Part shown: piece by piece, positions 1-64,000 of the stretch | Numbering within the stretch: the stretch's first letter is position 1 | Layout: the number at the start of each line of letters is the position of its first letter | DNA from: an uncultured virus (IMG/VR IMGVR_UViG_3300035208_004867) | Lineage: Duplodnaviria > Heunggongvirae > Uroviricota > Caudoviricetes | DNA: 64,000 nucleotides | Strand: one strand, 5' to 3' | Virus record (IMG/VR): IMGVR_UViG_3300035208_004867 | Position numbers and translations under genes: made by a program | The notes under the pieces: model-generated | Databases searched by the model: none | Told to the model about the DNA's origin: nothing | The model's input: only the letters and a program-made list of their open reading frames with translations

Positions 1-120
1 TCCCTTACGTCCATACCTGACGGGTTCAACCCGACGGTCGGCGGCTCTCTTTACCTGCGTTCCCTTACGTCCATACCTGACGGGTTCAACCCGACGGTCG
101 GCGGCTATCTTGACCTGAGT
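1..120 (+). repeat. Two 60-bp tandem coding repeats (20-aa units)
   Basis: Bases 1-60 and 61-120 differ at only 3 positions. Confidence 0.95.
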
Positions 121-617: not shown

Positions 618-821
618 ATGGGATACAAAAGACAGATGAAGGGGAGGTCTACATCAATTTATTTGTCAGATAAAAATTATGACCTGACAAATAAGGTTTC
701 CGAAAGCTCAGGTATGAGCAGGTCGGAACTGGTTAATGCTGTCATTGACAGTGTTAACCTTGAAAAACTTTTGAAGCAGAAGGACGGTGAAAAAGATGAA
801 CGAACTGAAGCTGGAAAATGA
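618..821 (+). CDS. Ribbon-helix-helix (CopG-like) DNA-binding protein
   Basis: TSIYLS strand followed by SGMSRSELVNAVI helix; AAGGAG RBS; TTGACA..TAGAAT promoter at ~575-604. Confidence 0.6.
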   Translation: MGYKRQMKGRSTSIYLSDKNYDLTNKVSESSGMSRSELVNAVIDSVNLEKLLKQKDGEKDERTEAGK

Positions 822-1791
822 TTCCTGCATTGTTGGGAAGTATCTGAAAGACGTCCCTGAAGAATATTTCAGGGAAGCCCGTTTAACCGGATTTGGCGGC
901 TCTGATGCCGGTGCTATAATGGGATTAAACCAGTATAGTTCAGCATTTACGGTAGTGAATGATAAACTTAACCCTGAAAAAGAGGGTATATCAAATAAAT
1001 CTACCAAACGCGGTAAGCGAATGGAACCCGTTATCCGGGAGTCACTTGCAACGTGGATAAAAGAAGAACAGGGGATTGATATTCAGGTGTTTGAATCTCC
1101 GTGGCAGTATCGGTCTGTCGTGAATGAATTCATGATCGCCGATATCGACGGACTCGTGATTCATCCGAAATCTGGTCTTAGTCTTCTTGAAATAAAAACG
1201 GCAACGGAAATGGTCGGAGATAAATGGGAAGATGGTTCTATCCCTGATTCATATTATGCACAGGTACAGCATTATATGTTTGTAACCGGACTGCGCATGT
1301 GCCTTGTTGCCGTAATGATCGGACTGGACTTTGAGTATCGGTACATCCCGTATAATGAGTCCTTTGTAAAAGAAATGATTGCAAAGGAAGAAAACCTGTG
1401 GAACAATTTTGTCATGAAAAAGTTACTTCCAATACCATCCGGCATTGACGCAGAAAATGAAATACTTAATAATAAGTACGGTAATCCTGTGCAGGAAACC
1501 ATTGATATCCCTGAATTATCAGATGACGCGGCAGAGTATCTGTATTTAAACGAACAGAAAAAAGAAATCGAAACACAAAAGGATGCAATCGCAGGAAAGT
1601 TTAAAGATGCCCTGAAAGATGCAAAGCGCGGAGATATGAAAGGTTATTACGCATTATGGAGCAGGTTTGATACAACAGGATTTGATAAAGAAAAATTCCA
1701 GTCTGAAAATCCTGAATTGTATCAGAAATATGTAACAAAAAGCCGTGGCAGTCGGCTTATGATAAAAGCTGCCAAGGACGGTAAAAAATGA
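796..1791 (+). CDS. YqaJ-like viral exonuclease/recombinase
   Basis: R.TGFGGSDAGAIMGLNQY, ADIDG, LEIKT and YYAQVQHYM motifs. Confidence 0.92.
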   Translation: MNELKLENDSCIVGKYLKDVPEEYFREARLTGFGGSDAGAIMGLNQYSSAFTVVNDKLNPEKEGISNKSTKRGKRMEPVIRESLATWIKEEQGIDIQVFESPWQYRSVVNEFMIADIDGLVIHPKSGLSLLEIKTATEMVGDKWEDGSIPDSYYAQVQHYMFVTGLRMCLVAVMIGLDFEYRYIPYNESFVKEMIAKEENLWNNFVMKKLLPIPSGIDAENEILNNKYGNPVQETIDIPELSDDAAEYLYLNEQKKEIETQKDAIAGKFKDALKDAKRGDMKGYYALWSRFDTTGFDKEKFQSENPELYQKYVTKSRGSRLMIKAAKDGKK

Positions 1792-7945: not shown

Positions 7946-8881
7946 ATGGCAGAAAGAAGGATGTTTGCATTGAAAATTATTGATAGTGATGCATTTCTAG
8001 ATATGCCTCAATCAACACAAAATCTTTATTTTCATCTCTCTATGAGAGCTGATGATGACGGCTTTATAAGCAATCCAAAAAAAATAATGCGAATGATCGT
8101 TGCATCCGATGATGATTTGCGCATACTTGCAGCAAAGCGGTTTATTCTTACTTTTGACACCGGGATAGTCGTCATAAAGCACTGGCGTATCCATAATTAC
8201 ATTGCTAAAGACCGATATACTCCGACTATATACAAAGAGGAAAAAGAGAAATTGTTTCTTAAATCCAACGGGTCTTATACTGATCATCCAGAAGGTGATA
8301 ACGAACTGTATACAAAGTGTATACAGAATGATGACACAGGTAAGGTAAGGTTAGGTAAGGTAAGGTTAGGTAAGGTAAGGTTAGGTAAGGTAAGGTTAGG
8401 TAAGGTAAGTAAAGATAGCGCATCACCAGATGGTGATGATGAATCTTTCACCGAGGATTCAGTTCCTGAAAAACCAAAAGAAGAAATTTCTGCAGCTGCA
8501 TTGTCAAATGCTCAGCTCTTAGCTGACCTTCATAAACAGAACGTGGACCAAGGATATAAAATCAATTCTGCGTATGTAAAAAAATGGGCTGAAGATATAG
8601 ACAAAATAAATCGTATTGACGGACGATCATGGGATGACATAGAAAAGGTGATGCGTTGGTGTAAATCTGACCCTTTCTGGCGCTCTAATATAATAAGCGG
8701 TAAAAAATTCAGGGAAAAATTTACACAACTTATCGGGAAAATGAATGATAATCATTCTTCACAGTCTTATTATAAACCGAAATATCGTGAAGAGCACGGC
8801 GTCCTCCGTAAGATTATACCTGAGAAAAAAAAAGGTGATGCATCTGAAAATAGTGAATTGCCTGATGGTGTTTTATTTTAG
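7946..8881 (+). CDS. Phage replication initiator (replisome organiser type)
   Basis: MAERRMF...IDSDAFLDMP.STQ.LYFHL.MRADDDGF N-terminus; C-terminal DPFWRSNIISGKKFREKF. Confidence 0.9.
   Translation: MAERRMFALKIIDSDAFLDMPQSTQNLYFHLSMRADDDGFISNPKKIMRMIVASDDDLRILAAKRFILTFDTGIVVIKHWRIHNYIAKDRYTPTIYKEEKEKLFLKSNGSYTDHPEGDNELYTKCIQNDDTGKVRLGKVRLGKVRLGKVRLGKVSKDSASPDGDDESFTEDSVPEKPKEEISAAALSNAQLLADLHKQNVDQGYKINSAYVKKWAEDIDKINRIDGRSWDDIEKVMRWCKSDPFWRSNIISGKKFREKFTQLIGKMNDNHSSQSYYKPKYREEHGVLRKIIPEKKKGDASENSELPDGVLF
8338..8408 (+). repeat. 15-bp tandem repeat (AGGTAAGGTAAGGTT x ~4.7), candidate origin iterons
   Basis: Directly visible; encodes GKVRL repeats inside the initiator gene. Confidence 0.9.
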
Positions 8882-12010: not shown

Positions 12011-12295
12011 ATGGAAAATAACAATGAAGATGGTACGAAGCAAAAAAGTGTATATCCACTTGAATGGGTGACTTATACAATTAATCCAAGCGACTACGGA
12101 AGTAAGTATATTGAACATCGTCATGTTCAAAGTGGTCTTAATATCAGGGAATATTATGCAGGAATGGCAATGCAGGCATTAATATTTCATTATGGCAATG
12201 AATCAGGTAATGCAAATGACTGCGCAAAAGTGGCTATAGAATACGCAGACGCACTTATTGCAGAATTAAATAAATCAGAGGAAGGAAATGAATAA
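12011..12295 (+). CDS. Conserved phage hypothetical protein
   Basis: GLNIREYYAGMAMQAL...YADALIAEL motif. Confidence 0.75.
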   Translation: MENNNEDGTKQKSVYPLEWVTYTINPSDYGSKYIEHRHVQSGLNIREYYAGMAMQALIFHYGNESGNANDCAKVAIEYADALIAELNKSEEGNE

Positions 12296-12746
12296 ATCAT
12301 TAAGAAAATGGCTCGTGGCACATGATGCGTGCAAATCCGGAGTTGACAGTCTGCTTGCGCTGCATATTACGGATGCACGTGACGCATACAATCGTGCGGC
12401 ACCTGAATACCTGATATGGACTGTAACACAAGATGGTGTTATGACGCAACGGAAGTGTGTGCAGTTTGCACTGTTCTGCGTGCGACAGGTTGCCCCGCTG
12501 CTCACTGATGATCGGAGCCGTGCTGTTATTCCGGCGCTAGAAGGATGGCTCGATGGCAGTATTACGCAGGGACAGATAGTCCGTGCCGCGGCCTATGCCG
12601 CCTATGCCGCTGATGCCGCCAATGCCGCCGCCCGTGCCGTCGCCTATGCCGCATATGCGGCCGATGCCGCCCGTAAGCAGCAGGCGGAATGGATACGGGC
12701 TAATATTCCGTTTGAATCGCTTAATCTGGAGGATAAAAAATCATGA
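12288..12746 (+). CDS. Ala-repeat phage protein (Imm5-like helical domain)
   Basis: FALFCVRQV..LLTDDRS followed by GC-rich AAYAAYAADAA repeats. Confidence 0.6.
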   Translation: MNKSLRKWLVAHDACKSGVDSLLALHITDARDAYNRAAPEYLIWTVTQDGVMTQRKCVQFALFCVRQVAPLLTDDRSRAVIPALEGWLDGSITQGQIVRAAAYAAYAADAANAAARAVAYAAYAADAARKQQAEWIRANIPFESLNLEDKKS

Positions 12747-13856: not shown

Positions 13857-14611
13857 CAGAAATATATAATATATAGTTATGAAAGGTTTTTGTCCGCGCT
13901 GCGGAAAGGCAATAGAAATGTTTCCTGATACACATGGGAACACGATTGTTGCTGATAAAGAGGACATGGATTTTATTATAGTTTTTTCAAACGGAACGTG
14001 CCAGAAAAAGCACGGAAGAGCCGTGCATGTGTGTGAAGCTACGGGAAAGGATGGAAAAATTGCCGGATAAAAATATTGAAGACCTGCAGAGTTATCTTAA
14101 TCATTTATCTGACAGCAGTTACAACGGTACTATTCTGGTAACATTCCAGAAAGGGAAGCCGACAAATCTGTCACAGAAGGAAGAACTAATTGTAGGAGAA
14201 CTTCAAAAAAAAATTCCGAAACGGATTTGTGTAATCCGAAAAACTGACTCTAAGGACGGTAAAGAGGATGAAAGTAAATGATATCATTGTGATGATTCCA
14301 GAAAATGTAAAAGACAGAGAGCGTAAAAACATTATCAGGCACATATCGCACAGCAGGAATTAATTCCGGTGCAGGAAATACAACAACTGGCTTTTGGAAA
14401 AAATTAAACAATTATTTAATACGCTTCTCTAATAAGAGACGTTTTTTTATCAAAAATCATAAGTAATTAATTAAAAAATATCTAAAAAACATCATTTTTA
14501 ACAATTTTTGTGCATTTTAACCACTTTTTATGACAATTTAATCAAAAAGTTACAATTTTAAGCAAAAAATGGCAATTGCTAAAAGAGGATATATTTGATA
14601 ATATTGTGAAT

Positions 14612-16931: not shown

Positions 16932-17011
16932 TACTGTATTTATAAAACAAAACATCAGGTATTGATAATAATATAAAACCATAGTAAGATTTATTTATAA
17001 GGACGGTAAAA

Positions 17012-17287: not shown

Positions 17288-18217
17288 AGTATGAAAAATA
17301 AAAGCTTAATGAATAATATCAAAAAAAAGAATATAACTAAAAAAGTCCGCGATCTTATGAAACTTACCGGAGCAACATCTGACTCCATTATAAACATTGC
17401 AAAAGGTATGATAAAAACATACCATTATGCGCCGGAAGTGGCATTGAATGTAATGGAAAAACAGCTTACAAAACGGGCGGCTGAGTTGCATACAACGGTA
17501 AGGGATATGCTAGCAGGAATGGAAAAAGCAGATAAAATGACTATGAGAGATTATCTGCCCATGATCAAATCAGACTCTACTCTTGATGTTATTGCAAAGC
17601 AGCCGCCGAAGGTTATTCGGTGAATAAAGAAAATATTATAACTCTTGCCCGTAAAAAGGCAGGGGATACATTATGTTTTCAGTGCCCTGATAAGATAAAA
17701 ACAGAGTGTACAAAACTGAATAACGGCGGTATGTCGTGCGAAGCACTGTTTGAGAAATATTTAGAGGACGGAAATGAAAGACATAAAAATAAAATCAATA
17801 GATGATGATATAAGCGCAGACATGCGTGAAATTTGGTTGTACATTGATTGTATCAATAATGAGTACAGAAATAAAAATCCTATGAGTACACCATGGTTTG
17901 AAAATTTATCTAAATGTTGTGAATCTTTGTCGAAATCGGCATTAAAGATGTTGGAATTATGTAAACATAAAATAGATATTCAATCTTATTTTATTGTCTA
18001 TTTTGGCTATGAAGGTAATTATACAATTACAAAGGGTAATTATCTCACAAAACAAACAGCAGTATATTGTCCGCGTTCTGATGGATTGCAAGAACCCTTG
18101 GGGATTGTAAATACAACAGAAATAATAAGTGATGAAATTGCATACGCTAAAATGACGCATTTAGATGATCATTTTTATTCAGCAGAAAGATTAAATTTTT
18201 TTTTATTGGACCAAAAT

Positions 18218-18285
18218 ATATTTTTAATTACCTATTGACAAATATATAAATAGTTGTATACTGATACTTGTGATCGGGAGTTACC
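18218..18285 (+). promoter_or_regulatory. Strong sigma70 promoter plus leader, copy 1 of a 68-bp inverted duplication
   Basis: TTGACA-17-TATACT; identical to the reverse complement of 45774-45841. Confidence 0.9.
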
Positions 18286-18626
18286 CGACAAGGAACACGG
18301 CCCACCCAACAGAGCGCCGGATCAAAGGAAGCAGAAAAATGAAAAGACATTTATATGATTTTTTCCTAATTAAAAACGACAGGCCGGAATATGTATTCTC
18401 CGGTTATATGTCAATTCTGGATCATGGTGCAGAAAATATAGAGTTCTACAACCATTCTAAAAGTTTGTTTAAAAAAATAAAGAGGTATAGTAATTTGTTT
18501 GTAAAAATGAATTATGGATACGTCGAGTATAAATAAGGAGTTACAAAGAGGATTGTTTTTTCAATCTTCCCGATTTCTGGAGGTAACTGTAATGCCTCCG
18601 GAAAAGGAGAAGACTGTTATTTTATA

Positions 18627-22754: not shown

Positions 22755-22897
22755 TTTTATTTTTAAGGACGGTTAAAATGGACGGATTTATTGATGGTCC
22801 CTACGTTGTAGGGGAAAAGATTGCATACGGATACGATATTTATACAGTAACATTAAGCAGGATAGATGCCACGCCTTCAGGCTGGCATGTGAACTGC

Positions 22898-23302
22898 TTA
22901 TCCCTGATTTTCTATATAATGTTTCAACGTCTTATCAGAAACAACTCCTATTGAAGAACAGAAATAACCCCTAGTCCACAGGTGATGTTTACCGCTCCAG
23001 TAGAAAGACTTCATATAATCATTATGTTTCATCCATACGTCACTGGTTGAAACCTGTTTAAGGCTTCTTATAATATCACAGACACGGCATGAAGGCGTTG
23101 CGGATATCATAAAATGTATGTGGTCATAATCTGTTTCCATAACTTCTATTTTCCACTTATCCTGCATCGATTCAGCCCTTCTCATTGAAGAAACAACATC
23201 ATCCTTTATCATATAAAGACATCTTTTTCGGTATTTTGTAGAAAATATGATATGATATCTTATTATGAATTTTTCATGATTAAGCGTATGATATCTGTCC
23301 AT
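22898..23302 (-). CDS. tnpA: IS200-type Y1 HUH transposase
   Basis: YHIIFSTKYR, DHIH, LWTRGYF, YIENQ. Confidence 0.96.
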   Translation of the reverse strand: MDRYHTLNHEKFIIRYHIIFSTKYRKRCLYMIKDDVVSSMRRAESMQDKWKIEVMETDYDHIHFMISATPSCRVCDIIRSLKQVSTSDVWMKHNDYMKSFYWSGKHHLWTRGYFCSSIGVVSDKTLKHYIENQG

Positions 23303-23390
23303 ATATCAAATATAACGTATGTAGTATAATTTGTCAATATATATATGAATGTACTTGACATTTTCTACTAACTTATAGTATATTATTTAT

Positions 23391-24677
23391 ATGGATGCAC
23401 GGGAAGACAAAAACAGACATATAGCAGAAACTATAAAGCATACGTATGAGAAACGTGCAGAGCAGATATGCCGTGTCTTCACTGTCAAGGTTCAGGATAA
23501 CAAACTGTCCAAAAGACAGCGAGAACAGCTTAAGATGATGTTCGTTGAAGCAAAGTGGCTTAAAAACTCAATACTTGCATGGTCAAATAATAACCCTGAT
23601 AACAAGATATGGGACTATGATACAAAACAGAACGTAATAACACATAAAGATAAAGATATGCATGATGTAGAAGTAGAACTTAAATATATTCCTGCATCAG
23701 TTAAGCAGTGTGTTCAGTCTGAAATGATAGCAAATATAAGGACTATAAGTTCATTGAATAAGAAAGGATTGCAGAAAGGAGGAAAACTTAAATTCGTAAG
23801 CGAAGTTAAGTCACTTAACTTTAAACAGTACGGCAAGACGCATAGGATAGTATCATCAAAGAGGATAAAGTTGCAGGGTGTCTCTGGTACGGTTACGGTT
23901 AACGGTATGAACCAGTTTTATGGTACTGACGTTGAATATGCCAATGCAAAACTGCTGAATACACCTCTTGGGTATTATGTGCAGTTTACTACATATCAGG
24001 CAAAAAGCAGTATTGTAAAGAAAGAAGACAATGGTAAAGTTATAGGTATAGACTTCGGGTGTTCTACTGCCTTTACGACAAGTGAAGGGGAAAAAATACC
24101 TGCGTCAATTCAAGAAAGTGAACGTATAAAGCGTCTTTCAGCAAAGATGAACAGACGTCAGATAAAAGGTTCAAAGAACTGGTACAGGACAGTAGGACAG
24201 ATAAGGAAAGAATATCAGAAGATGACAAACCGGAAGAACGATCTTGCCAATAAGATAACTGCTTATTTCAATGAATACAAAACCATTGTTATTCAGGACG
24301 AACAGCTTTCAAACTGGATGAAGGGCAACCACGGAAAAGCGGTACAGCATTCAGTTATGGGAAGAGTAAAGGCTAAACTTATGCTCAACCCTAAGACTAT
24401 AGTACTTTCAAAAACTGTGCCGACTACAAAGTTGTGTACTTCATGCGGTCAGTATCATGATGATATGAAGGTATGGGACAGGACGTTCACATGCGGATGC
24501 GGAGTAAACATGGACAGGGATGTTCATGCCGCACTTGATATGGTATGGTTTTATGAGCATAATGTAGGTGTGGGACACACCAATTTCAAGCGTGCGGAGA
24601 TGGAAGCTCTGGTTTTAAGTGCTTTAAGTACCGGGAACCAACTTGCGTCTGTGAAACACGAAGCTGACTGTCTTTAG
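23391..24677 (+). CDS. tnpB: RNA-guided endonuclease TnpB
   Basis: GIDFG (RuvC I), IVIQDE (RuvC II variant), CTSCG..CGCG zinc finger, DRDVHAA (RuvC III). Confidence 0.93.
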   Translation: MDAREDKNRHIAETIKHTYEKRAEQICRVFTVKVQDNKLSKRQREQLKMMFVEAKWLKNSILAWSNNNPDNKIWDYDTKQNVITHKDKDMHDVEVELKYIPASVKQCVQSEMIANIRTISSLNKKGLQKGGKLKFVSEVKSLNFKQYGKTHRIVSSKRIKLQGVSGTVTVNGMNQFYGTDVEYANAKLLNTPLGYYVQFTTYQAKSSIVKKEDNGKVIGIDFGCSTAFTTSEGEKIPASIQESERIKRLSAKMNRRQIKGSKNWYRTVGQIRKEYQKMTNRKNDLANKITAYFNEYKTIVIQDEQLSNWMKGNHGKAVQHSVMGRVKAKLMLNPKTIVLSKTVPTTKLCTSCGQYHDDMKVWDRTFTCGCGVNMDRDVHAALDMVWFYEHNVGVGHTNFKRAEMEALVLSALSTGNQLASVKHEADCL

Positions 24678-24713
24678 GCTGTCAGTAGTTCACTGTCTTA
24701 TTACGACAGCAAA
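24565..24713 (+). ncRNA. Cis omega/reRNA of the IS with flanking guide TGTCTTATTACGACAGC...
   Basis: Overlaps the tnpB 3' end and the right end, as established for IS605 elements. Confidence 0.75.
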
Positions 24714-24790
24714 AAACGTCTTACTGGAGAAGAAACACTTTTCCAGCACAGAATAAAAAGAGTGATTTTTTTCTGAATAATATTAGGATG

Positions 24791-24820
24791 TTATACGGAA
24801 CCGTATAAAATATGTTGGAT
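24791..24820 (+). repeat. Degenerate attC-like palindrome plus GTTRRRY core
   Basis: TTATACGGAACCGTATAA-AATAT-GTTGGAT; 26 bp identical to 33491-33516. Confidence 0.55.
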
Positions 24821-24879
24821 GGACGCTTTAGCCGCACAAGCAGCGGGCGCTTATGCGGACAGACCGCAAGGAGAAAAGC

Positions 24880-26550: not shown

Positions 26551-27132
26551 ATGAAAGAAGTCGGAAGGCTGTTTAGTACTGATATGGTACATGCAATTAT
26601 GGACGGAAGGAAGTTTTATACCCGCAGACTGATAAAAAAATTTCCGTGCACCGGTTATAAATGGGCCGGATGGATCACTGATTCTACCGATGGTAAAGAA
26701 ATCGGAGATGCGGTTATTGTTCCGGAGAATAAGGAGGTATATGATCATACGAATGCAATTTATGCAAAACCACCTGTTGCAATCGGAGATAGAATCTATG
26801 TACGGGAAACGTGGTCAAAAGACAGCAACGGTACCATTGTATATCGTGCTGACAAAATGTTTGATGAAATGAAAACATTTGACTGGGACTGGTGTCCATC
26901 TTTATTTATGCCGAAAGCATATGCCAGAATATGGCTAGAAGTTACAAACGTGAGCGTTGAACTGATTAGAAATATAACCGACATGGAAGCAAAGCTTGAA
27001 GGTTTTTATGATTGTGATCAGTTTTTAAATTATATGTTTACAAAATACTTGAAGGAGCAGACAGATAATGCTGTAAACAGCATCTTAAACAGCTGGGTGT
27101 GGGTAATTGATTTTAAAAGAATTGAACATTAA
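26551..27132 (+). CDS. ASCH/PUA-like phage protein
   Basis: MVHAIMDGRK..TRR, GDRIYVRETW, PSLFMPK..ARIWLEVT, WVWVIDF. Confidence 0.8.
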   Translation: MKEVGRLFSTDMVHAIMDGRKFYTRRLIKKFPCTGYKWAGWITDSTDGKEIGDAVIVPENKEVYDHTNAIYAKPPVAIGDRIYVRETWSKDSNGTIVYRADKMFDEMKTFDWDWCPSLFMPKAYARIWLEVTNVSVELIRNITDMEAKLEGFYDCDQFLNYMFTKYLKEQTDNAVNSILNSWVWVIDFKRIEH

Positions 27133-28371
27133 TATAAATGGATGAAAAAAGAAAATACTGTACAAATTATATGGGATGAAAGAGAGAAGCAGCCAATAAA
27201 AGATTTGAGCAGGCAGTATTATAAGTTGGCATGTGCATTGTTGAATTTTGCAGTATCCGAATCCCATATAAAAGACAGAAAATATATAAGCGAATATATA
27301 AAACATGATGCAGATTATTTTCTGACAACAAAAGGAGAAGGAGGAATGTATGATCTTTGTATGGATATAATTTCAATGTATGAAGGAAAATATAAAAAAG
27401 AAGACATAAAATTAAGCACGGTTGTTAACAATATTATAAACAATGAATAGAATTAATTACCTGTTGTAAACAGGAAGGACGGAAAAATGATACCTGATAA
27501 GACAGTAAGAAAACTGCTTAAAAAGCAGACAAGAATTGAGGTCGCAGAATACCTTACAAGAAAACATGGTTACACTCTTGAAAAGGCTGTGAAGCAACTT
27601 AAAGAGGTAGCGGTTAATGAAGCTGAAACCAGTAAAATTTCGTAAAAATCGCCGGATACCGTATGAATATATTTACGGAAGATTTATAGAAAAAGCGAAA
27701 TCTTTCTCTATAAAAGAATTATCTGAATTAATTGACCGTAAAGAAAAATGGATTGAATGGTATGTATACGACGGTAAAGAACGTATTACGCGGCGTCTGC
27801 TTGAATCGTTGTGCAGAAAGCTTGATATACCTGTAAGCGATCACAGCGGACACAGATCCACAGAAAATAAAATTTTTTTGTACTGTGACTGTGGAAATGA
27901 ACTTATGGCATCCAACTCTTTTGTATCGGATAGTTATGACAAAGACTGGAATAATCATGTCCTTTTCAAGTGTTCAAAATGTGGAAAAGAACTTGATTTT
28001 GATTTTGATGTTCCTGTTCCATTAAGATGGGCGGAAGACGGAGGATATGAAGATGATAATTCCAGAACCAGTAATATATAAAGATGTAAAATTATGTGAT
28101 GGTGACTGCAATAACTGTCAGATAATTAGACATAAAAATTCAAGAATGCTGACTAAAATATTCAATCAGCTTTATAACGAATTAGGAGATAAGGTTTATG
28201 AAATTGTGCAAGGTAACTGTCCTAATATGACATGCTGTTACGATTGCCATATTGACGATTTTTGCCATACAGCAGGTTGTAAACTTTGCAAATAATATAG
28301 ACAAAAGTTTTGCAAAATGATAATGTAAGTGCGAATAAGAAGCAGGACGGTGCCGAATGTTCACAACCAAG

Positions 28372-28452
28372 AGGTATTATATCAGGCGTCAAACAGGAAG
28401 TCTTCACCTTCCTCCGGCTACCGTCCAGCCATTGACGCCTGTTATGATACCT
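28372..28452 (+). ncRNA. C4/CI-like antisense RNA 2
   Basis: Long closing stem plus hairpins GGAAG-TCTTCAC-CTTCC and GGCT-ACCGTCC-AGCC, then a T-tract; upstream TAGACA-17-GATAAT promoter. Confidence 0.65.
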
Positions 28453-28665
28453 TTTTTATTTTAGGGAGGACGGTATGAGTGAATTTTGTGAATGGAAGCA
28501 GGTCGGTTTTATGTTTTACCCGGACTGCTGCCAGAAGAAAAACAAAGACATCCAAATGGGACAGACTGATACCGAAGTTTTCAAGTTCTGCCCTTTCTGC
28601 GGTAAACAGATAAAGCCGATAAATTTTGAAGGTAAAGAGATAAAGTTTGTCTCAAGAGGTAAGAA

Positions 28666-29259
28666 ATGAAACTGATTTATATTGATACAGAAACAACGGG
28701 GACGGACACCGAACATTGCGCGATAACGCAACTTGCCGGATGCATTGTTGCTGATGGTAAAAGTGAAGACTTTAACTTTTTTATGAAACCTTTTGAAGGT
28801 GCTCTAATTACAGATGAAGCGCTTAAAATCCAGAACAAAACATGTGAAGAAATAATGAGTTATTCTTCAGACAAGAAAACGTTTGTTGATTTTACTTCAT
28901 TACTCGGCAAGTATATAGACAGGTATGAAAAGTCTGATAAATTCTTTTTCATAGGATATAATTCGCGGTTCGATTCTGATATGATCCGTAACTGGTTCAA
29001 ACGTAACGGAGACAATTATTACGGTTCATGGTTCTGGATGCCGGATATTGATGTTATGGCACTTGCAGCACGTGCGCTTATAAACATCCGTAATACTCTG
29101 CCTAATTTCAGACTTGAGACGGTTTCAAAATATCTGTTTCCGAATGATGCGGATGTTCAAAATCCACAATTTCATGATGCGCGGTATGATATTCTTATGA
29201 CACGTAAAATAATGCAGATTATAGGTGTAGGAATAATCAAAAAGGACGGTGAAAAATGA
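28666..29259 (+). CDS. DEDDh 3'-5' exonuclease
   Basis: IDTETTG, GYNSRFD, FHDARYD. Confidence 0.92.
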   Translation: MKLIYIDTETTGTDTEHCAITQLAGCIVADGKSEDFNFFMKPFEGALITDEALKIQNKTCEEIMSYSSDKKTFVDFTSLLGKYIDRYEKSDKFFFIGYNSRFDSDMIRNWFKRNGDNYYGSWFWMPDIDVMALAARALINIRNTLPNFRLETVSKYLFPNDADVQNPQFHDARYDILMTRKIMQIIGVGIIKKDGEK

Positions 29260-29529
29260 CAAGTCACGAATTAGCTAAAAAACTATTAGAGTTACCAGAT
29301 TTACCAATAGCAACCCATGCTGACAATAATACGTATATGTCTTTGGAAGACAAACGTTTTGGTATTGAAAATTGTAATATAGGTTTATTAGAATCATATC
29401 TTGGGCAGCATATTGTTATTGGTAATTTTTACCATGCTGATATAAACAAGCCTAATTGGTATGTTTCAAAAATGTTTTACGGTCATTTAGATAAACTAAA
29501 ATAAATGGTATCAAAAAATTAAAAAAGGG

Positions 29530-29700
29530 TTGTCAAAAGTCGAAGATACAGAAGATTTATGCCATGAGATAGGGCATGTTATAGACTGGTATTTAAGCTC
29601 TGGTAAACAGCCAACGGAATTAGATATTAGAGAAAGAAATGCAGATACGATAGGTAATTATTTATCAGAATTATGTTTAGAAGAGGGAAGTGTAAAATAA
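29530..29700 (+). pseudogene. Zincin (ImmA/IrrE-like) fragment
   Basis: CHEIGH...ERNAD in a short frame without a good start. Confidence 0.45.
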
Positions 29701-29955
29701 TTTATATTTTTGCAAAAGATGAACAGTCAGCAAAGAAATATGATTGCGGAGGGGTTGAATTCAGGTATGCTGATTGTATGAATGTGAGAGGTAGAGCAAT
29801 TACCGATTATGATAGGCTGGTATTCTTAAATGGATGGGAAGAGAATTTAGAATATGATGAATATTTCTTCAATTCTTTTATGCCATGTTTAATAAGAAGT
29901 GAGATAAACAGAAATGCTTTTATGAACGCATGGGAAATTGATAAGGGTATAAATA

Positions 29956-30306
29956 ATGGACGAACCACAACTTGAGCTGTTTGAAAATCTTCCGGTAAAA
30001 ACAAAAGGAAGAACCATTGATGAATCTTTTGCAGAATTTGACGAAAAGAATCCGCATGTGTACCGCAATCTTGTAAAGCTCGCGTGTCAGTGTAAAAGTT
30101 CAGGACGTAACGTTGTAGGTATTGCGCTGCTGTATGAAAAGCTCCGGTGGGATTACATGATACAAACTGATGGTGAAGATTATAAACTACCTAACAACTA
30201 TGCTTCCCGGTATGCAAGAAAAATAATGGCAGAGAACGAAGAACTTGACGGGATATTCAGGACGGCGGCTTTAAGACCGAAAAAAGGACGTAAGTATGGA
30301 AAATGA
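29956..30306 (+). CDS. Conserved phage hypothetical protein
   Basis: FDEKNPHVY...YEKLRW...YKLPNNY.SRYARKIM. Confidence 0.7.
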   Translation: MDEPQLELFENLPVKTKGRTIDESFAEFDEKNPHVYRNLVKLACQCKSSGRNVVGIALLYEKLRWDYMIQTDGEDYKLPNNYASRYARKIMAENEELDGIFRTAALRPKKGRKYGK

Positions 30307-30952
30307 AATAAAAGGTAAATGTTTCTCAAAATGTGACAGAGGGCAGCGGAATAAACATGATTTTTATCAGACTCCGTACAGTATGACAAGACAGTTCCTT
30401 GACAGAGTAGTAATCCCTGACGGATCACTTATTCTTGAACCATGCTGCGGGAACGGAGCAATAGTTAACATTCTTAAAGAGAGAAATTTAAATATAATAA
30501 ATCATGATCTTTTTGTTGATGGTATAGATTTTTTAATTTATGAAAAAAAGTCTGATTATATTATCACTAATCCGCCGTTATCACTTTCAACGGAATTTAT
30601 TCTTCATTGCAAGAAGGTCGCAGAAAAACAATTCTGCCTTTTTATGCCGATAGAATATCTTCACGGGGAAGAAAGGTATAAGAAAATATACAGTATAGAC
30701 GACGGTTATCCACTTACTGATATATATGTTTTTACCAGACGTGCAATGCTCACCGATGAAGTAAGACCTGACGGAATGTATGATACCGGAATGGTAACGT
30801 GGGCTTGGTTTGTGTGGACAAAGATTGGCATTCAAAGAATACAAGGTTCCATTGATGATAAAAGAACATTTATCCCAAACCCGTCAATCCACTGGATAGA
30901 TAATAACGATTTTGTCATAAGAAACGGAAGAAGACGCTTGACAAAAGAGTAA
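30296..30952 (+). CDS. DNA amino-methyltransferase (NPPL variant)
   Basis: DFYQTP, ILEPCCGNG, IITNPPL, AWFVW. Confidence 0.85.
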   Translation: MENEIKGKCFSKCDRGQRNKHDFYQTPYSMTRQFLDRVVIPDGSLILEPCCGNGAIVNILKERNLNIINHDLFVDGIDFLIYEKKSDYIITNPPLSLSTEFILHCKKVAEKQFCLFMPIEYLHGEERYKKIYSIDDGYPLTDIYVFTRRAMLTDEVRPDGMYDTGMVTWAWFVWTKIGIQRIQGSIDDKRTFIPNPSIHWIDNNDFVIRNGRRRLTKE

Positions 30953-30966
30953 ATCAGATTTATTAT
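30938..30966 (+). promoter_or_regulatory. Sigma70 promoter for the ncRNA locus
   Basis: TTGACA-17-TATTAT. Confidence 0.8.
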
Positions 30967-31119
30967 AAATAATCCTTGCCCGTACGGGCTGGAAATATGC
31001 GGATAACCGGCAATACGGGTTATAGTAATTATAGTGGTTTATTAACATTTTACCTTACACCCTGTGAGGGGACAAGCACCGGAGTTTCCGGAGGCAGCAA
31101 GTCAAGACGGGGAATTTAT

Positions 31120-31255
31120 GGTTCTGTAGTTCAGTGGTAGAACGGGCGCATATTCTACGCCAGCGAGCCTCAATCGTAAATGATTTTTACGGTATTAGTA
31201 AAGGCCAATGTAGATTAATCATCTACAAGCGCAGGTTCAAATCCTGCCGGAACCT
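31120..31255 (+). ncRNA. tRNA-like RNA with a ~70-nt structured insert
   Basis: Acceptor GGTTCTG/CGGAACC, D-arm GTTC-AGTGGTA-GAAC, T-arm GCAGG-TTCAAAT-CCTGC; non-canonical anticodon arm. Confidence 0.8.
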
Positions 31256-31519: not shown

Positions 31520-31875
31520 ATTCAGCCTATAGCTACCATGTTCCGGCTGGGGCAAACGCCGCCGTCAGGGTGATAACTAAGCCTGAAAAAAAGGATAGGA
31601 CGGTAAAATATGAAGAAATCATACTTAGAAGAAATCAATTTTGTTTGTGCTGATTTTTCATGGAATAACGGAGAAGCGAAAAAAATTTTAATTCAGGAAC
31701 TGTTTCACCGGTTAAACATCGATATCACCAATTATGAATATGTATTCGGGATGGACTGGATATCAATATCTAAAGACAGAAAAATAATATCAGGATACAA
31801 TGAAAAATGTATCAATGCCAAAGAAATTACCGTAAATGACATGCTTACCGGAAATTATTGAAAGAGGAATATATA

Positions 31876-33077: not shown

Positions 33078-33486
33078 TGTTAACAGGTGGGTTGGAATAG
33101 GAAGACTTACAAGGGATGCAGACTTGACGTTTACGAAAGAAAGCAATATGGCTATCGGGAAAATATCTATTGCTGTAAACAGGAGTGTAAAGCACGGAGA
33201 AGAATGGGCTGATGAAGTAAGTTACTTTGACGTGACGATATTCGGGAAAACAGCAGAGAGTCTTAAACCGTACCTTTTAAAAGGTCAGCAGGTTGCCATA
33301 GACGGACATTTGCAGCAGGACAGATGGCAGAAGGACGGACAGAATTACAGCAAAGTAGTTATTATATGTGAAACAATCCAGCTTCTGGGTGGTAAGAAAA
33401 ATGATTCAGGAGATACGAATCAGACACCTAAATTTGTACCAAAACAAACCGATAACGGGCAGTTCCCTGAAGATATACCTTTTTAG
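33070..33486 (+). CDS. ssb: Single-stranded DNA-binding protein
   Basis: GRLTRD OB fold, C-terminal EDIPF. Confidence 0.96.
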   Translation: MTDVNRWVGIGRLTRDADLTFTKESNMAIGKISIAVNRSVKHGEEWADEVSYFDVTIFGKTAESLKPYLLKGQQVAIDGHLQQDRWQKDGQNYSKVVIICETIQLLGGKKNDSGDTNQTPKFVPKQTDNGQFPEDIPF

Positions 33487-33836
33487 AAGTTTATACGGAA
33501 CCGTATAAAATATGTTATGCGGACGTTTAGCGGCATAACTGCGTTACGCCGACAACGCACCAAGTTTTTGACACAGATTATAGGATGAAGAAAATGGACG
33601 AATTATTGTTACAAGAAATTTTTTCATTGCGTGAAAAAGTTAAAATATTAGCACGTCTTCTTGCAAAATATGAGCCTGAACTCGAATTGAGTGGACTGAT
33701 ACATGACGTTGGAACAGAGGACGCGTGTTGATTCTTTGAAGGTGCCAAAAACACCGAACAAGCTAATCAACCTATCTCGGAACAATAGTTTTCCGCAGAT
33801 TAAATCATAGCCGATTACGCACCAAGGAGGTGCACG

Positions 33837-45756: not shown

Positions 45757-45773
45757 ATAAACCGTCCTTATCA

Positions 45774-45841
45774 GGTAACTCCCGATCACAAGTATCAGTA
45801 TACAACTATTTATATATTTGTCAATAGGTAATTAAAAATAT
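45774..45841 (-). promoter_or_regulatory. Strong sigma70 promoter plus leader, copy 2
   Basis: Exact inverted copy of 18218-18285. Confidence 0.9.
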
Positions 45842-45849
45842 TTTGTGTA

Positions 45850-49003: not shown

Positions 49004-49585
49004 ATGAGTTTTAAAGACAGACTTATACATGCTTTCCCTGTTGTTTCAGAAATGCTCAGCAGAGATAAGCCTATTGTCAAGCAACAGCTTGTAACCGGTG
49101 CCGTTGCCGGAGATGTCACAGTAAACGGAATTCTTAAAGATGATGAACTTGTGTCGGTTATAGACCTTACAAGTATTGTTGATCTCACATCGGAATTCAG
49201 TGTTACAGGAAGCAATACTATCAATAATAGCGGAGGAACTGCTACCGGAACAGCCGCTGTAAAAGCTACGGGTCAGGTAACGTTTACCCGGTCAGTTACG
49301 ACAGCGGCGGTAACTATACCGTCAGGTACGCAGGTATCTACTACCGGAGGAGTCGTATTTGAGACTACGGCAGATGCGTCAATGGCCATAGGAACGGGTA
49401 CGGTAACAGTAGCAATACAAGCAGTTGTTGCCGGTACAGCCGGAAACGTATCTATAGGGACAATCACGACGATTGTTACTACAGGTTCCGGTGCCGACTC
49501 TGTAACAAACGCCGCCGCTACTACGGGAGGTGCCGCTGCTTCCGGCTACAAAGTGATGGTGACTTATATACCCTGGACAGAGTAA
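49004..49585 (+). CDS. Putative capsid decoration protein with an inserted baseplate-J-type beta domain
   Basis: Follows the capsid gene; central ~90 aa closely match the baseplate J gene at 63.3-63.6 kb. Confidence 0.6.
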   Translation: MSFKDRLIHAFPVVSEMLSRDKPIVKQQLVTGAVAGDVTVNGILKDDELVSVIDLTSIVDLTSEFSVTGSNTINNSGGTATGTAAVKATGQVTFTRSVTTAAVTIPSGTQVSTTGGVVFETTADASMAIGTGTVTVAIQAVVAGTAGNVSIGTITTIVTTGSGADSVTNAAATTGGAAASGYKVMVTYIPWTE

Positions 49586-49833
49586 TTAAAACTAAAGGAT
49601 AAAGGTGAAATATGGCTAAAAAAGAAGAAAACAATCCAGAAGAAGAGGAAAACACAACTTCTCAGACACAGGAAAAAAACAAATTTTATGTTACTTCGGA
49701 TACATTCAAATCTATGGAAATTTCCGGTGTCAACGGATCAAAAATAACTTTTGATGAAAACGGAAAAGCAGAGGTAACGGAAGCTGATTACAAGCGTCTT
49801 TCAACAATGAAAGAATTCAAGCCGGTAAAATAA

Positions 49834-63103: not shown

Positions 63104-64000
63104 ATGAGCTTCAATTTACGGACATATTCCGCCATTTATGCTTCAATTAAAGCTTATATAATAGCCAATCAGGATATTATAACAGATTTTAATGACGGAG
63201 GTGTCCTTTCTTCAGAAATAGAAGCTTTCTCAAGACAACTTGCTCAGGCATACGCAGAAGACAGAGCCGGATTTACAGAAGTTCTTAAAAGACTTCCCTA
63301 CTCTATATTTGATTTTTCTGCGAAAGATGCAGTGGCGGCCACAGGATCAGTCACCTTTGCCAGAACTGATACAACGGCGGCAGTAACAATATCATCGGGA
63401 ACTCAGGTATCTACTACCGGAGGAGTCGTATTTGAGACTACAGCAGATGCGTCAATGGCCATAGGAACGGCAAATGTATCTGTAGCCGTCAAGGCCGTAA
63501 CATCAGGTACGACAGGCAACGTATCCGCCGGTACTGTAACAACTATTGTATCTTCTGTGGATGCTGATTCTGTAACAAACTCATCGGCTATGTCCGGTGG
63601 TGTAGATGCTGAAACGACATCCCAGATGCTGTCACGGTTCCGTTCTTACATTATGGGACTTTCAAAAAGTAATAAATATGGAATTATGTATGCAGCTCTG
63701 TTGAATACATCAGTAAGATCGGCTTCAGTGCTTGAACATTTTCCACCGAAAAGCAATCTTTATAATTTTACTCTTTATATAGACGACGGTAACGGGTCAG
63801 CAAGCAGCGAGATGATCGCAGTTGTAAAAAATATTATTGACGGAGACGGAACACAGACAAATCCGGGATACAGGGCTGCCGGAATAAACTGTGATATACT
63901 GGCTCCTACAATTCTTTATCAGGCGGTTACAGCTACTATTACCGTTAATTATGATGTTGATGTAGATGAAGCAAAGTCAACCCTTGGAAGCGCAATTACA
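63104..64000 (+). CDS. Baseplate J-like wedge protein (3'-truncated)
   Basis: ITDFN.GGV, ATGSVTF, GNV.AG, SGGVDAET..M..RFR, GYRAAGI; absent from the ORF track because no stop lies in the window. Confidence 0.88.
   Translation, partial: MSFNLRTYSAIYASIKAYIIANQDIITDFNDGGVLSSEIEAFSRQLAQAYAEDRAGFTEVLKRLPYSIFDFSAKDAVAATGSVTFARTDTTAAVTISSGTQVSTTGGVVFETTADASMAIGTANVSVAVKAVTSGTTGNVSAGTVTTIVSSVDADSVTNSSAMSGGVDAETTSQMLSRFRSYIMGLSKSNKYGIMYAALLNTSVRSASVLEHFPPKSNLYNFTLYIDDGNGSASSEMIAVVKNIIDGDGTQTNPGYRAAGINCDILAPTILYQAVTATITVNYDVDVDEAKSTLGSAIT

Follow-up and report, generated by a model that had tools for sequence, protein, structure and literature searches.

A branched RNA with a loop complementary to a ribosome-site heptamer in a partial genome of an uncultured tailed phage: a candidate antisense regulator

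Locus and genomic context

The stretch of DNA described here, called the window throughout, comprises 64,000 nucleotides (nt) of the uncultured virus IMG/VR IMGVR_UViG_3300035208_004867 and is part of the genome of an uncultured tailed phage with a G+C content of 38%. The subject of this report is a locus in its early half at which a putative promoter, a leader, a branched RNA and a U tract are followed by an open reading frame (ORF) for a zinc-ribbon-like protein and by an RNase_T/DEDD exonuclease gene (Table 1). One loop of the RNA, ACCGTCC in DNA letters, is, as had been stated in an earlier reading made from the sequence alone (hereafter the sequence-only reading), the exact reverse complement of the heptamer GGACGGT, which occurs on both sides of the RNA (at 28345 and 28468). 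The heptamer, here called the tag, also stands close ahead of start codons elsewhere in the window, and the locus is considered below as a candidate antisense regulator of ribosome-binding sites (RBSs).

Nearly all genes of the window are carried on the + strand. Family scans of the window proteins placed replication, recombination and nucleotide genes at 0-34 kb (RecE/YqaJ-like exonuclease, RecT, DnaD-like and DnaC-like loaders, SSB, HU, dUTPase, dCMP deaminase and a DEDD/RNase_T exonuclease) and portal, major head protein, sheath and baseplate genes at 35-64 kb. The DnaD-like and DnaC-like loader types suggest a Firmicute-like host. Compared by major head protein, the closest cultured phages are only 24-31% identical. 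(A host hint from Atlas, consisting mostly of viral clusters and one Bacillota DnaB_2 cluster with a structure TM of 0.45-0.51, was not used as evidence.) Scans of 49, 27 and 34 proteins found no antirepressor, repressor or integrase families, the window being a partial genome. Contigs of the DNA runs X1 and X2, which may represent the source samples, show zero differences from the window over 26658-31080, and among the pieces listed for the DNA run X3 there were only fragments of a relative, none of them covering the RNA.

A synteny search anchored on the protein of the adjacent exonuclease gene recovered the same locus in two metagenome contigs, L092 and L093, which are identical to each other and have about 82% nucleotide identity to the window; they are called the sister phage below. 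The sister contigs are 8-9 kb long, so that just 8.5 kb of this phage could be compared.

Table 1. Positions of the features at the RNA locus and of tagged gene starts, in window coordinates
Feature	Position	Strand	Remarks
Putative sigma-A/sigma-70-type promoter	28298-28326	+	-35 TAGACA at 28298-28303, 17-nt spacer, extended -10 TG-n-TAATGT at 28318-28326
Leader block GCAGGACGGTGCCGAATGTTCACA	28340-28365	+	Upstream tag copy GGACGGT at 28345-28351, complementary to loop 2
RNA core	28372-28452	+	Three-way junction from folding
Basal helix	28372-28392 / 28432-28452	+	10 + 10 pairs
Hairpin 1	28395-28413	+	7-nt loop UCUUCAC (loop 1) at 28401-28407
Hairpin 2	28416-28430	+	7-nt loop ACCGUCC (loop 2) at 28420-28426
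U tract UUUUUAUUUU	28453-28462	+	Continuous with U28452, directly 3' of basal helix
Downstream target	28468-28483	+	GGACGGU at 28468-28474, overlaps Shine-Dalgarno (SD) sequence GGAGG, abuts ATG 28475
Zinc-ribbon-like ORF, 64 amino acids (aa)	28475-28669	+	Next gene downstream of RNA
RNase_T/DEDD exonuclease gene	28666-29259	+	From family searches
Second two-part site GAUGGU-AAAA-GUGAAGAC	28753-28770	+	Inside RNase_T/DEDD exonuclease gene
Tag	782-788	+	7 nt before ATG 796, RecE/YqaJ-like exonuclease
Tag	1776-1782	+	5 nt before ATG 1788, AAA/SMC-like ATPase
Tag	14254-14260	+	7 nt before ATG 14268; ORF of only 31 codons; canonical AGAGG in between
Tag	17001-17007	+	4 nt before ATG 17012, 91-aa DUF4406 protein
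Variant tag GGACGGA	17766-17772	+	1 nt before ATG 17774, 154-aa ORF
Tag	22767-22773	+	4 nt before ATG 22778; ORF truncated to 58 codons by IS200/IS605 insertion
Variant tag GGACGGA	27477-27483	+	3 nt before ATG 27487, 52-aa ORF
Tag	29244-29250	+	5 nt before ATG 29256, 82-aa ORF, first of three-gene block
Tag	31598-31604	+	5 nt before ATG 31610, 83-aa ORF
Tag	45761-45767	-	4 nt before ATG 45756, 158-aa ORF in structural region

Structure and conservation of the RNA

The region 28360-28465 folds as a three-way junction with a minimum free energy of -41.9 kcal/mol, compared with -17.4 ± 3.0 kcal/mol for shuffled sequences (z = -8.2), and none of the 200 shuffles reached a fold as stable. The branched RNA with loops TCTTCAC and ACCGTCC that the sequence-only reading had described is thus borne out. 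For a 126-nt transcript the ensemble predicted loops 1 and 2 to be unpaired with P of at least 0.94, and six of the seven bases of the tag copy in the leader likewise (P about 0.96). Each loop contains four C in seven bases and no UCCC.

Regarding the sister phage, 75 of the 81 positions of the RNA core are identical in L093 and none of the 14 loop bases is changed. Three of the six differences fall on junction bases and three in the basal helix, where each turns a Watson-Crick pair into a G-U pair on the + strand; on the - strand the same three changes would be C-A mismatches, which argues for a + strand RNA. A covariance model scored the + strand at 109.9 and 107.4 bits (window and sister phage) and the - strand at 38.7 and 25.9 bits. 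Judged from these sequence comparisons, the element is a real and conserved RNA of the + strand. It is very improbable that the functional RNA is that of the - strand, with loops GUGAAGA and GGACGGU and a GGAGG junction serving as an RBS mimic that sponges ribosomes or a tag-binding factor; by symmetry this strand folds just as well, and it would display the tag and GGAGG, but the mismatches just mentioned affect all three stem substitutions of the sister phage, the model score drops on that strand from 38.7 to 25.9 bits, and the U tract, the conserved promoter and all neighbouring genes belong to the + strand.

One reading frame across the region is open in both phages, ends in an ATGA that overlaps the next start, and contains the sole indel, which is 3 nt long. 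That a small protein is encoded here, in this 42-codon GTG frame (28350-28478) or in a 35-codon ATG frame (28357-28464), is nevertheless hardly credible: the open frame shows one synonymous difference against about eight that change an amino acid (own count from the alignment), there is no SD sequence ahead of the GTG, the ATG frame meets a stop after three codons in L093, and the substitutions fit the RNA structure instead. Coding by the RNA region is accordingly rated as unlikely from the sequences at hand. As another candidate, a packaging RNA of the phi29 type was rejected, the loops not being complementary to each other and the phage having a terminase and a myovirus tail.

Regarding known RNA families, cmscan against Rfam gave a transfer RNA (tRNA) as the sole match in the whole window at gathering scores, and only chance-level matches to SNORD97, Bacillus-plasmid and REN-SRE, with none to C4, in 28200-28600 at E ≤ 10. 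ARAGORN called no tRNA or transfer-messenger RNA in the window, and a blastn search of 50,697 phage records with 28290-28490 as query yielded zero matches.

The promoter proposed in the sequence-only reading is plausible insofar as its hexamers and the TG are kept in L092 and L093, with only 44 of the surrounding 60 nt identical; on the other side, it is a weak match that a consensus promoter scan did not list because the -10 hexamer fits 3 of 6 positions. Transcription from it would start near 28333. The leader block is identical in the sister phage at all 26 positions, as compared with 44 of the 60 nt before it, 2 of the 6 nt after it and 16 of 26 positions at the start of the next ORF. At the other end, TTTTTTATTTT comes straight after the last base of the basal helix (28452), which gives the combination of stem and U tract seen in an intrinsic terminator, and a U-rich tract follows the basal helix in the sister phage as well. 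The U tract probably marks the point where the RNA ends, or else belongs to an attenuator. A scan for simple-hairpin terminators did not list the RNA stem because that stem is branched.

Three small ORFs in succession, rich in Cys and containing CxxC pairs, surround the RNA (27617-28081, 28047-28295 and 28475-28669, encoding 154, 82 and 64 aa), none of which matched Pfam or PHROGs.

The tag and its placement

On both strands of the window the tag GGACGGT occurs 17 times, compared with a mean of 3.02 (standard deviation 1.74, maximum 8) in 100 dinucleotide shuffles, none of which reached 17; one of the copies is loop 2 itself. Ten of the 17 copies stand 0-7 nt ahead of an ATG and are oriented with the local genes, among them all eight distant sites that the sequence-only reading had listed (the exact tags with their own rows in Table 1). 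Among heptamers ranked by their occurrence in the 10 nt ahead of ATGs followed by 45 or more open codons, AGGACGG shares first place, with 11 of its 19 copies so positioned; the co-leading heptamer, AAATAAA, is of low complexity and has 11 of 69 copies in start-proximal position. When the middle base of GGA-N-GGT is considered, C is found 17 times (8 near starts), A 7 times (2), G once (0) and T 4 times (0).

The remaining genes, including all + strand structural genes, mostly have ordinary AGGAG, GGAGG or GAGG sites, and the host ribosome is presumably canonical for that reason. The untagged starts of the phage itself served as the control for the tests of the tag. The tag consists of an SD-compatible AAGGA core and a private CGGU extension; since it opens with AAGGA and pairs with the generic anti-SD sequence, its earlier description as a non-canonical RBS was overstated.

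Beyond AA-GGACGGT-(A/G)AAA-ATG the tagged sites share no related sequence. This bears on a further explanation, in which the heptamer was spread by descent, through cassettes that recombine at short ribosome-site homologies, and the RNA has an unrelated, local role. The phage does encode recombination proteins of the RecE/RecT type, and an indel that distinguishes it from the sister phage breaks inside a tag: the three-gene block at 29256-29953 is missing in the sister phage (L093 4588-4594) and in a fragment from run X3, the left breakpoint lying within the tag, where AAAAAGGACG is followed by GTGAAAAATG in the window and by AAGTATAATG in the sister phage. Cassette exchange at ribosome sites may therefore have helped to spread the tag. 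As a full account, spread by descent is nonetheless quite improbable. The sequences 5' of the tag and 3' of the ATG are unrelated among the sites, so that at most 9-16 nt could be shared by descent. Moreover, the 16-mer AAGGACGGTAAAAATG forms no common pool in IMG/VR, where it occurs in 85 contigs with one exact copy per fetched locus (±5 kb), several of these copies falling in coding repeats.

Two of the tagged starts have further features of their own. One copy of a strong promoter (TTGACA-TATACT) precedes the minus-strand tag at 45761-45767 and belongs to an 83-nt inverted repeat (18212-18294 on the + strand and 45765-45847 on the - strand, 95% complementary). The repeat bears a near-consensus promoter (TTGACA, about 17 nt, TG-n-TATACT) together with the start of a 5' leader; its minus copy continues straight into GGACGGT, where the plus copy has GGAACACGG. 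The tagged gene starting at 22778 contains an IS200/IS605-type element (22898-24830) and has 58 codons as compared with 105 in L093. The element encodes a Y1 transposase (22898-23302, - strand, PF01797) and a TnpB-like protein (23391-24677, phrog_506). A 46-nt direct repeat with the palindrome TATACGGAACCGTATA, 83% identical between its copies at 24783-24828 and 33483-33528, lies just past the TnpB gene in one case and just past the SSB gene in the other, and may be an end of the insertion sequence or a solo end.

Pairing of the loops with tagged and local sites

Duplex energies were calculated between the 22 nt before each start and loop 2 with 2 nt on either side. As bare duplexes, without unfolding cost, the 11 tagged starts paired with loop 2 at -12.1 to -15.0 kcal/mol (mean -13.9 kcal/mol), compared with a mean of -4.5 kcal/mol for the 94 other starts. 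With a generic anti-SD tail, the same 11 tagged starts gave -8.3 to -13.1 kcal/mol (mean -9.7 kcal/mol). On the basis of its sequence, loop 2 looks like an anti-SD sequence with one extra G. The chance that one of the two 7-nt loops of the locally most stable RNA would mirror one of about seven top start-proximal heptamers among 16384 was estimated at about 1e-3.

These values also bear on the possibility that the tag is read by a phage repressor or endoribonuclease (RegA/RegB-like), or is a favoured flavour of SD sequence, its match to the loop being local or coincidental. The tag does contain a usable SD sequence, as the anti-SD energies of the 11 tagged starts show, three small Cys-rich zinc-ribbon-like ORFs flank the RNA, the three-gene block (29256-29975) is present here and absent in the sister phage without distal tags, and there is a precedent in T4, according to the consulted part of PMC3014915. 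Still, such an explanation is improbable, given that family scans found no RNA-binding or nuclease family in the small flanking ORFs, that a chance mirror between loop and heptamer has the low estimate just stated, and that the heptamer also lies on both sides of the RNA within 130 nt.

Regarding the local sites, loop 2 is complementary to GGACGGT both upstream (28345) and downstream (28468) of the RNA on the same strand, and loop 1 has partners downstream only (28479 and 28763). The downstream site reads GGACGGT-ATGA-GTGAA, as the sequence-only reading had it; in the message, GGACGGU-AUGA-GUGAA (GUGAA at 28479-28483) presents first the partner of loop 2 and then that of loop 1, the order that suits antiparallel pairing. 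At the second two-part site, the pairing comprises 6 nt with loop 2, including one G-U, and 8 nt with loop 1 and its closing pair. The sister phage keeps this second site in improved form as GACGGT-AAAA-GTGAAGAC, i.e., GACGGU-AAAA-GUGAAGAC. The pattern GGT-N4-GTGAA, which was picked after the first site had been seen, occurs only twice on both strands of the window (128 kb), at 28472 and 28756, in both cases less than 300 nt downstream of the RNA; GGT and GTGAA at other spacings gave 0-4 scattered copies each.

Occurrence in other phages

With the exonuclease as anchor, eight loci were found in metagenome contigs, two of which (L092 and L093) have the RNA, and three in viral contigs, one of which is identical to the window; genome contigs yielded zero loci. 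The covariance model gave zero matches in the exonuclease loci L002, L003 and L094-L098, and in L002, L003 and L094-L096, where the 700 nt preceding each exonuclease homologue were folded, no comparable element came to light. Among relatives by capsid protein, the model matched none of five (G002-G006), in which no candidates were seen at first look either, which is weak evidence of absence. Four more distant capsid-protein relatives have 0-2 AGGACGG-N(1-9)-ATG sites each, against 0-1 per strand in reversed-pattern controls, and gave no match to the RNA model.

Searches with short patterns had a similar outcome. The exact 15-mer of hairpin 2 was present in 87 stretches of IMG/VR; among the 83 matches listed, only the contig identical to the window was real, the others being chance matches in unrelated, mostly high-GC contigs. 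A gapped pattern of leader, loop 1 and loop 2 gave five matches in IMG/VR, of which again only the window-identical contig was real. The same pattern was found in at least 120 stretches of GTDB genomes; the three listed matches with a G+C content below 50% were inspected and none was RNA-like, the remaining listed ones being set aside by G+C content alone. Of the 85 IMG/VR contigs in which the 16-mer AAGGACGGTAAAAATG occurs, not one exceeds two tag-like starts within ±5 kb, and in none of the five 16-mer loci that also hold ACCGTCC did this sequence fold into a hairpin loop. Tag and RNA thus co-occur in one lineage only, which is a single observation.

Interpretation

The reading favoured here, to which we give about an even chance of being right, is that the RNA is an antisense small RNA (sRNA) resembling c4 and CI, which blocks access to the RBS of the operon downstream of it and, in the window phage, to those of a private-tag regulon. 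It builds on the structure, conservation, strand and complementarity observed for the RNA and on the enrichment and placement of the tag. The locus would make a + strand non-coding RNA of about 125 nt, with a promoter, a leader, the three-way junction and the U tract. Loop 2 would base-pair with the GGACGGU that overlaps the SD sequence (AAGGA/GGAGG) of the next gene, the GGACGGU of the leader being a competing or pseudoknot partner, and loops 1 and 2 together would engage the two-part sites at the start of the zinc-ribbon ORF and within the exonuclease ORF. Such pairing would mask the RBS and lower the translation of the downstream operon. Because the RBSs of about ten other genes bear the same heptamer, it is predicted that this set (RecE-like exonuclease, AAA ATPase and several small ORFs) would be dampened in trans. 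Drift cannot account for nine identical heptamers at unrelated starts, and loop 2 is the sole sequence-specific partner of the tag that was found. In a more tentative extension, whose prospects we put somewhat short of even, the tag, given to about a dozen genes, would be read by two competitors, namely the host ribosome through the AAGGA core and the more tightly binding loop of the phage RNA, so as to form one RNA-only switch for the gene set and its own operon.

Several points weigh against this reading. The RNA is carried by just two lineages, about 82% identical, and none of the 30 pairs is altered on both sides in the sister phage, so that the stem changes represent compatibility and not covariation. 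Five sense-strand copies of GGACGGT lie away from gene starts (295, 2069, 5190, 44360 and 56125), and the bias of the heptamer towards early genes did not reach significance (tagged starts 10 of 72 early versus 1 of 33 late, Fisher p = 0.17). The tag alone is a workable SD sequence, and since it is itself usable as such, its function would be possible without the RNA. As for loop 1, its complement GTGAAGA stands near starts in 2 of 16 copies on both strands, i.e., has no association with starts, and a 7-nt loop on a 4-bp stem cannot easily form all seven pairs without opening of the stem. The sister phage, with loop 2 unchanged, keeps the heptamer at none of the three comparable distal sites, which read AGGAGA (at 22767), GGACGAA (at 29244) and GGAAGGT (at 31598); this is roughly the loss to be expected of neutral divergence at 18-20%, and for that reason the comparison does not establish a conserved trans regulon. 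Its downstream cis site reads GGACGGA and the GTGAA that would pair with loop 1 is gone, so that the pairing of loop 1 at the next gene, as earlier proposed, holds for the window but not for the sister phage. Transcription, the ends of the RNA, pairing in vivo, repression as the effect and its timing are what we infer from these features.

The same observations bring in the main rival, a cis-only element: a leader, attenuator or 3'-untranslated structure in which pseudoknots between loops and flanks control the zinc-ribbon/exonuclease operon alone. It agrees with the conservation of only local sites in the sister phage (the leader at 26 of 26 positions, GGACGGA downstream and the two-part site in the exonuclease gene, as against none of the three distal tags), with the local position of both two-part sites that use loop 1, and with the U tract, which permits an attenuator. 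It leaves unexplained, however, the nine further starts that carry the heptamer mirrored by loop 2, with the strong preference for a middle C, and the absence of the tag from relatives that lack the RNA; besides, a cis-pairing RNA, if it accumulates, would meet GGACGGU on other messages too. We regard a purely local element as unlikely, though as a contender to be reckoned with.

In the sister phage the RNA is retained together with its loops, and none of the three distal tags is; the conserved function is therefore judged to be local and the distal tags specific to the window phage, and within the favoured antisense reading there is better support for action in cis than in trans. All statements of the sequence-only reading about the sequence itself are confirmed and its interpretation is partly supported: for the proposed trans regulon speak the dominance of the heptamer among start-proximal motifs and its tighter pairing with loop 2 than with the anti-SD motif (-13.9 versus -9.7 kcal/mol), and against it the three distal sites of the sister phage.

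If the extension with two competing readers is true, the switch would cover recombination nucleases and small early proteins in a virulent-type phage, and private RBS tags with a matching sRNA would be an undescribed way to time phage translation. An RNA by which a phage reads a private SD extension on many genes of its own would amount to an RNA-based regulon, a c4-like cis regulator having been widened into a trans network by the copying of a 7-nt tag onto other starts; the sister phage, in which the RNA is present and the tag absent at three comparable distal sites, may catch this step from cis to trans. With an RNA of about 125 nt and a tag of 7 nt, the system is compact and could serve as an orthogonal translational switch. 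If the reading is wrong, there is still a new conserved structured RNA and a highly specific RBS motif that requires another explanation.

Other features of the window

A tRNA-like gene lies on the + strand at 31120-31255. The Rfam tRNA model fits its acceptor, D and T arms (44.6 bits), and 82 nt stand in place of the 17 anticodon-region positions of the model; ARAGORN did not call it. In contigs of the runs X2 and X3, position 31144 is joined to 31230 by 22 other letters that resemble a normal anticodon arm with CAU, for which reason a variant phage appears to have an ordinary tRNA where the window phage has an insert or replacement.

Repeats were found at four further places. Two tandem G+C-rich units of 60 nt, 95% identical, occupy the extreme start of the window (1-120). 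Within the gene for the DnaD-like replication organiser (7946-8881), the 15-nt unit AGGTAAGGTAAGGTT is repeated five times in tandem (8338-8412), and these repeats may be an iteron-type origin inside the initiator gene. Repeats with a period of 9 nt, TATGCCGCC-like, are present at 12581-12680 within the ORF 12288-12746. A baseplate-wedge-like gene and the last ORF of the window share direct repeats (49277-49610 and 63350-63610), one of 200 nt with 75% identity and one of 49 nt with 71%, which probably reflect paralogous domains of tail proteins.

Comparison with known systems

Post-transcriptional timing in phages is known mainly from proteins (RegA, RegB) and from antisense RNAs with a single target (c4, CI, sar, OOP). 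The c4 RNA of P1 and P7 and the CI RNA of P4 belong to temperate elements, in the icd-ant antirepressor operon or the P4 early operon, and their sites upstream and downstream are known as a1b1/a2b2 and seqA/seqC; c4 is processed from a longer precursor by RNase P. The consulted part of PMC12197685 describes c4 of P1/P7 as a small structured leader RNA with sites complementary to its loops, in which the target covers an RBS and translation is blocked. The present locus resembles c4 and CI in that the RNA lies in the leader of the operon it would control, that complements of loop 2 lie on both sides of it, and that the downstream target overlaps the RBS of the next ORF (28468-28474, GGAGG, ATG 28475). 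The likeness to C4 and CI drawn in the sequence-only reading is sustained by this layout with flanking sites, but not by family membership, as neither the Rfam C4 model nor any other Rfam family was matched. Unlike in c4 and CI, a zinc-ribbon-like ORF and a DEDD exonuclease gene lie downstream instead of icd and ant, the window, a partial genome, showed no genes for immunity or lysogeny, the phage is of Firmicute type by its replication genes and not an enterobacterial plasmid-prophage, and the target heptamer is present at about ten other starts as well.

Regarding bacterial sRNAs, those of Firmicutes act independently of Hfq through unpaired C-rich loops that pair with the SD sequences of several mRNAs and thereby prevent initiation, according to the consulted parts of PMC2790875 and PMC6486639. 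The set used for comparison consisted of RsaA-K/RsaE and the RNAIII hairpins of S. aureus, 6C of M. tuberculosis, and RoxS. Judged by its sequence, loop 2 may be similar, with four C in seven bases and complementarity to an SD-overlapping sequence of several genes. It differs in that UCCC is absent, in that no Rsa or RoxS family of Rfam is matched, in that the RNA is phage-encoded and complementary to genes of the phage itself, and in that a private SD extension is targeted, other starts pairing at a mean of only -4.5 kcal/mol.

In T4, RegA is a translational repressor and RegB an endoribonuclease that cuts GGAG in early SD sequences. According to the consulted part of PMC3014915, the two provide a post-transcriptional shut-off of the phage's own genes by way of a ribosome-site signature. 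By analogy, the outcome predicted here would likewise be a post-transcriptional dampening of the phage's own gene set; unlike in T4, the candidate effector is an RNA and not a protein, and family scans of the window proteins found no homologues of RegA or RegB.

Those parts of the literature that were consulted hold no description of a phage sRNA directed at a private RBS tag. New here are a structured phage RNA, its c4-like layout and a candidate set of several target genes.

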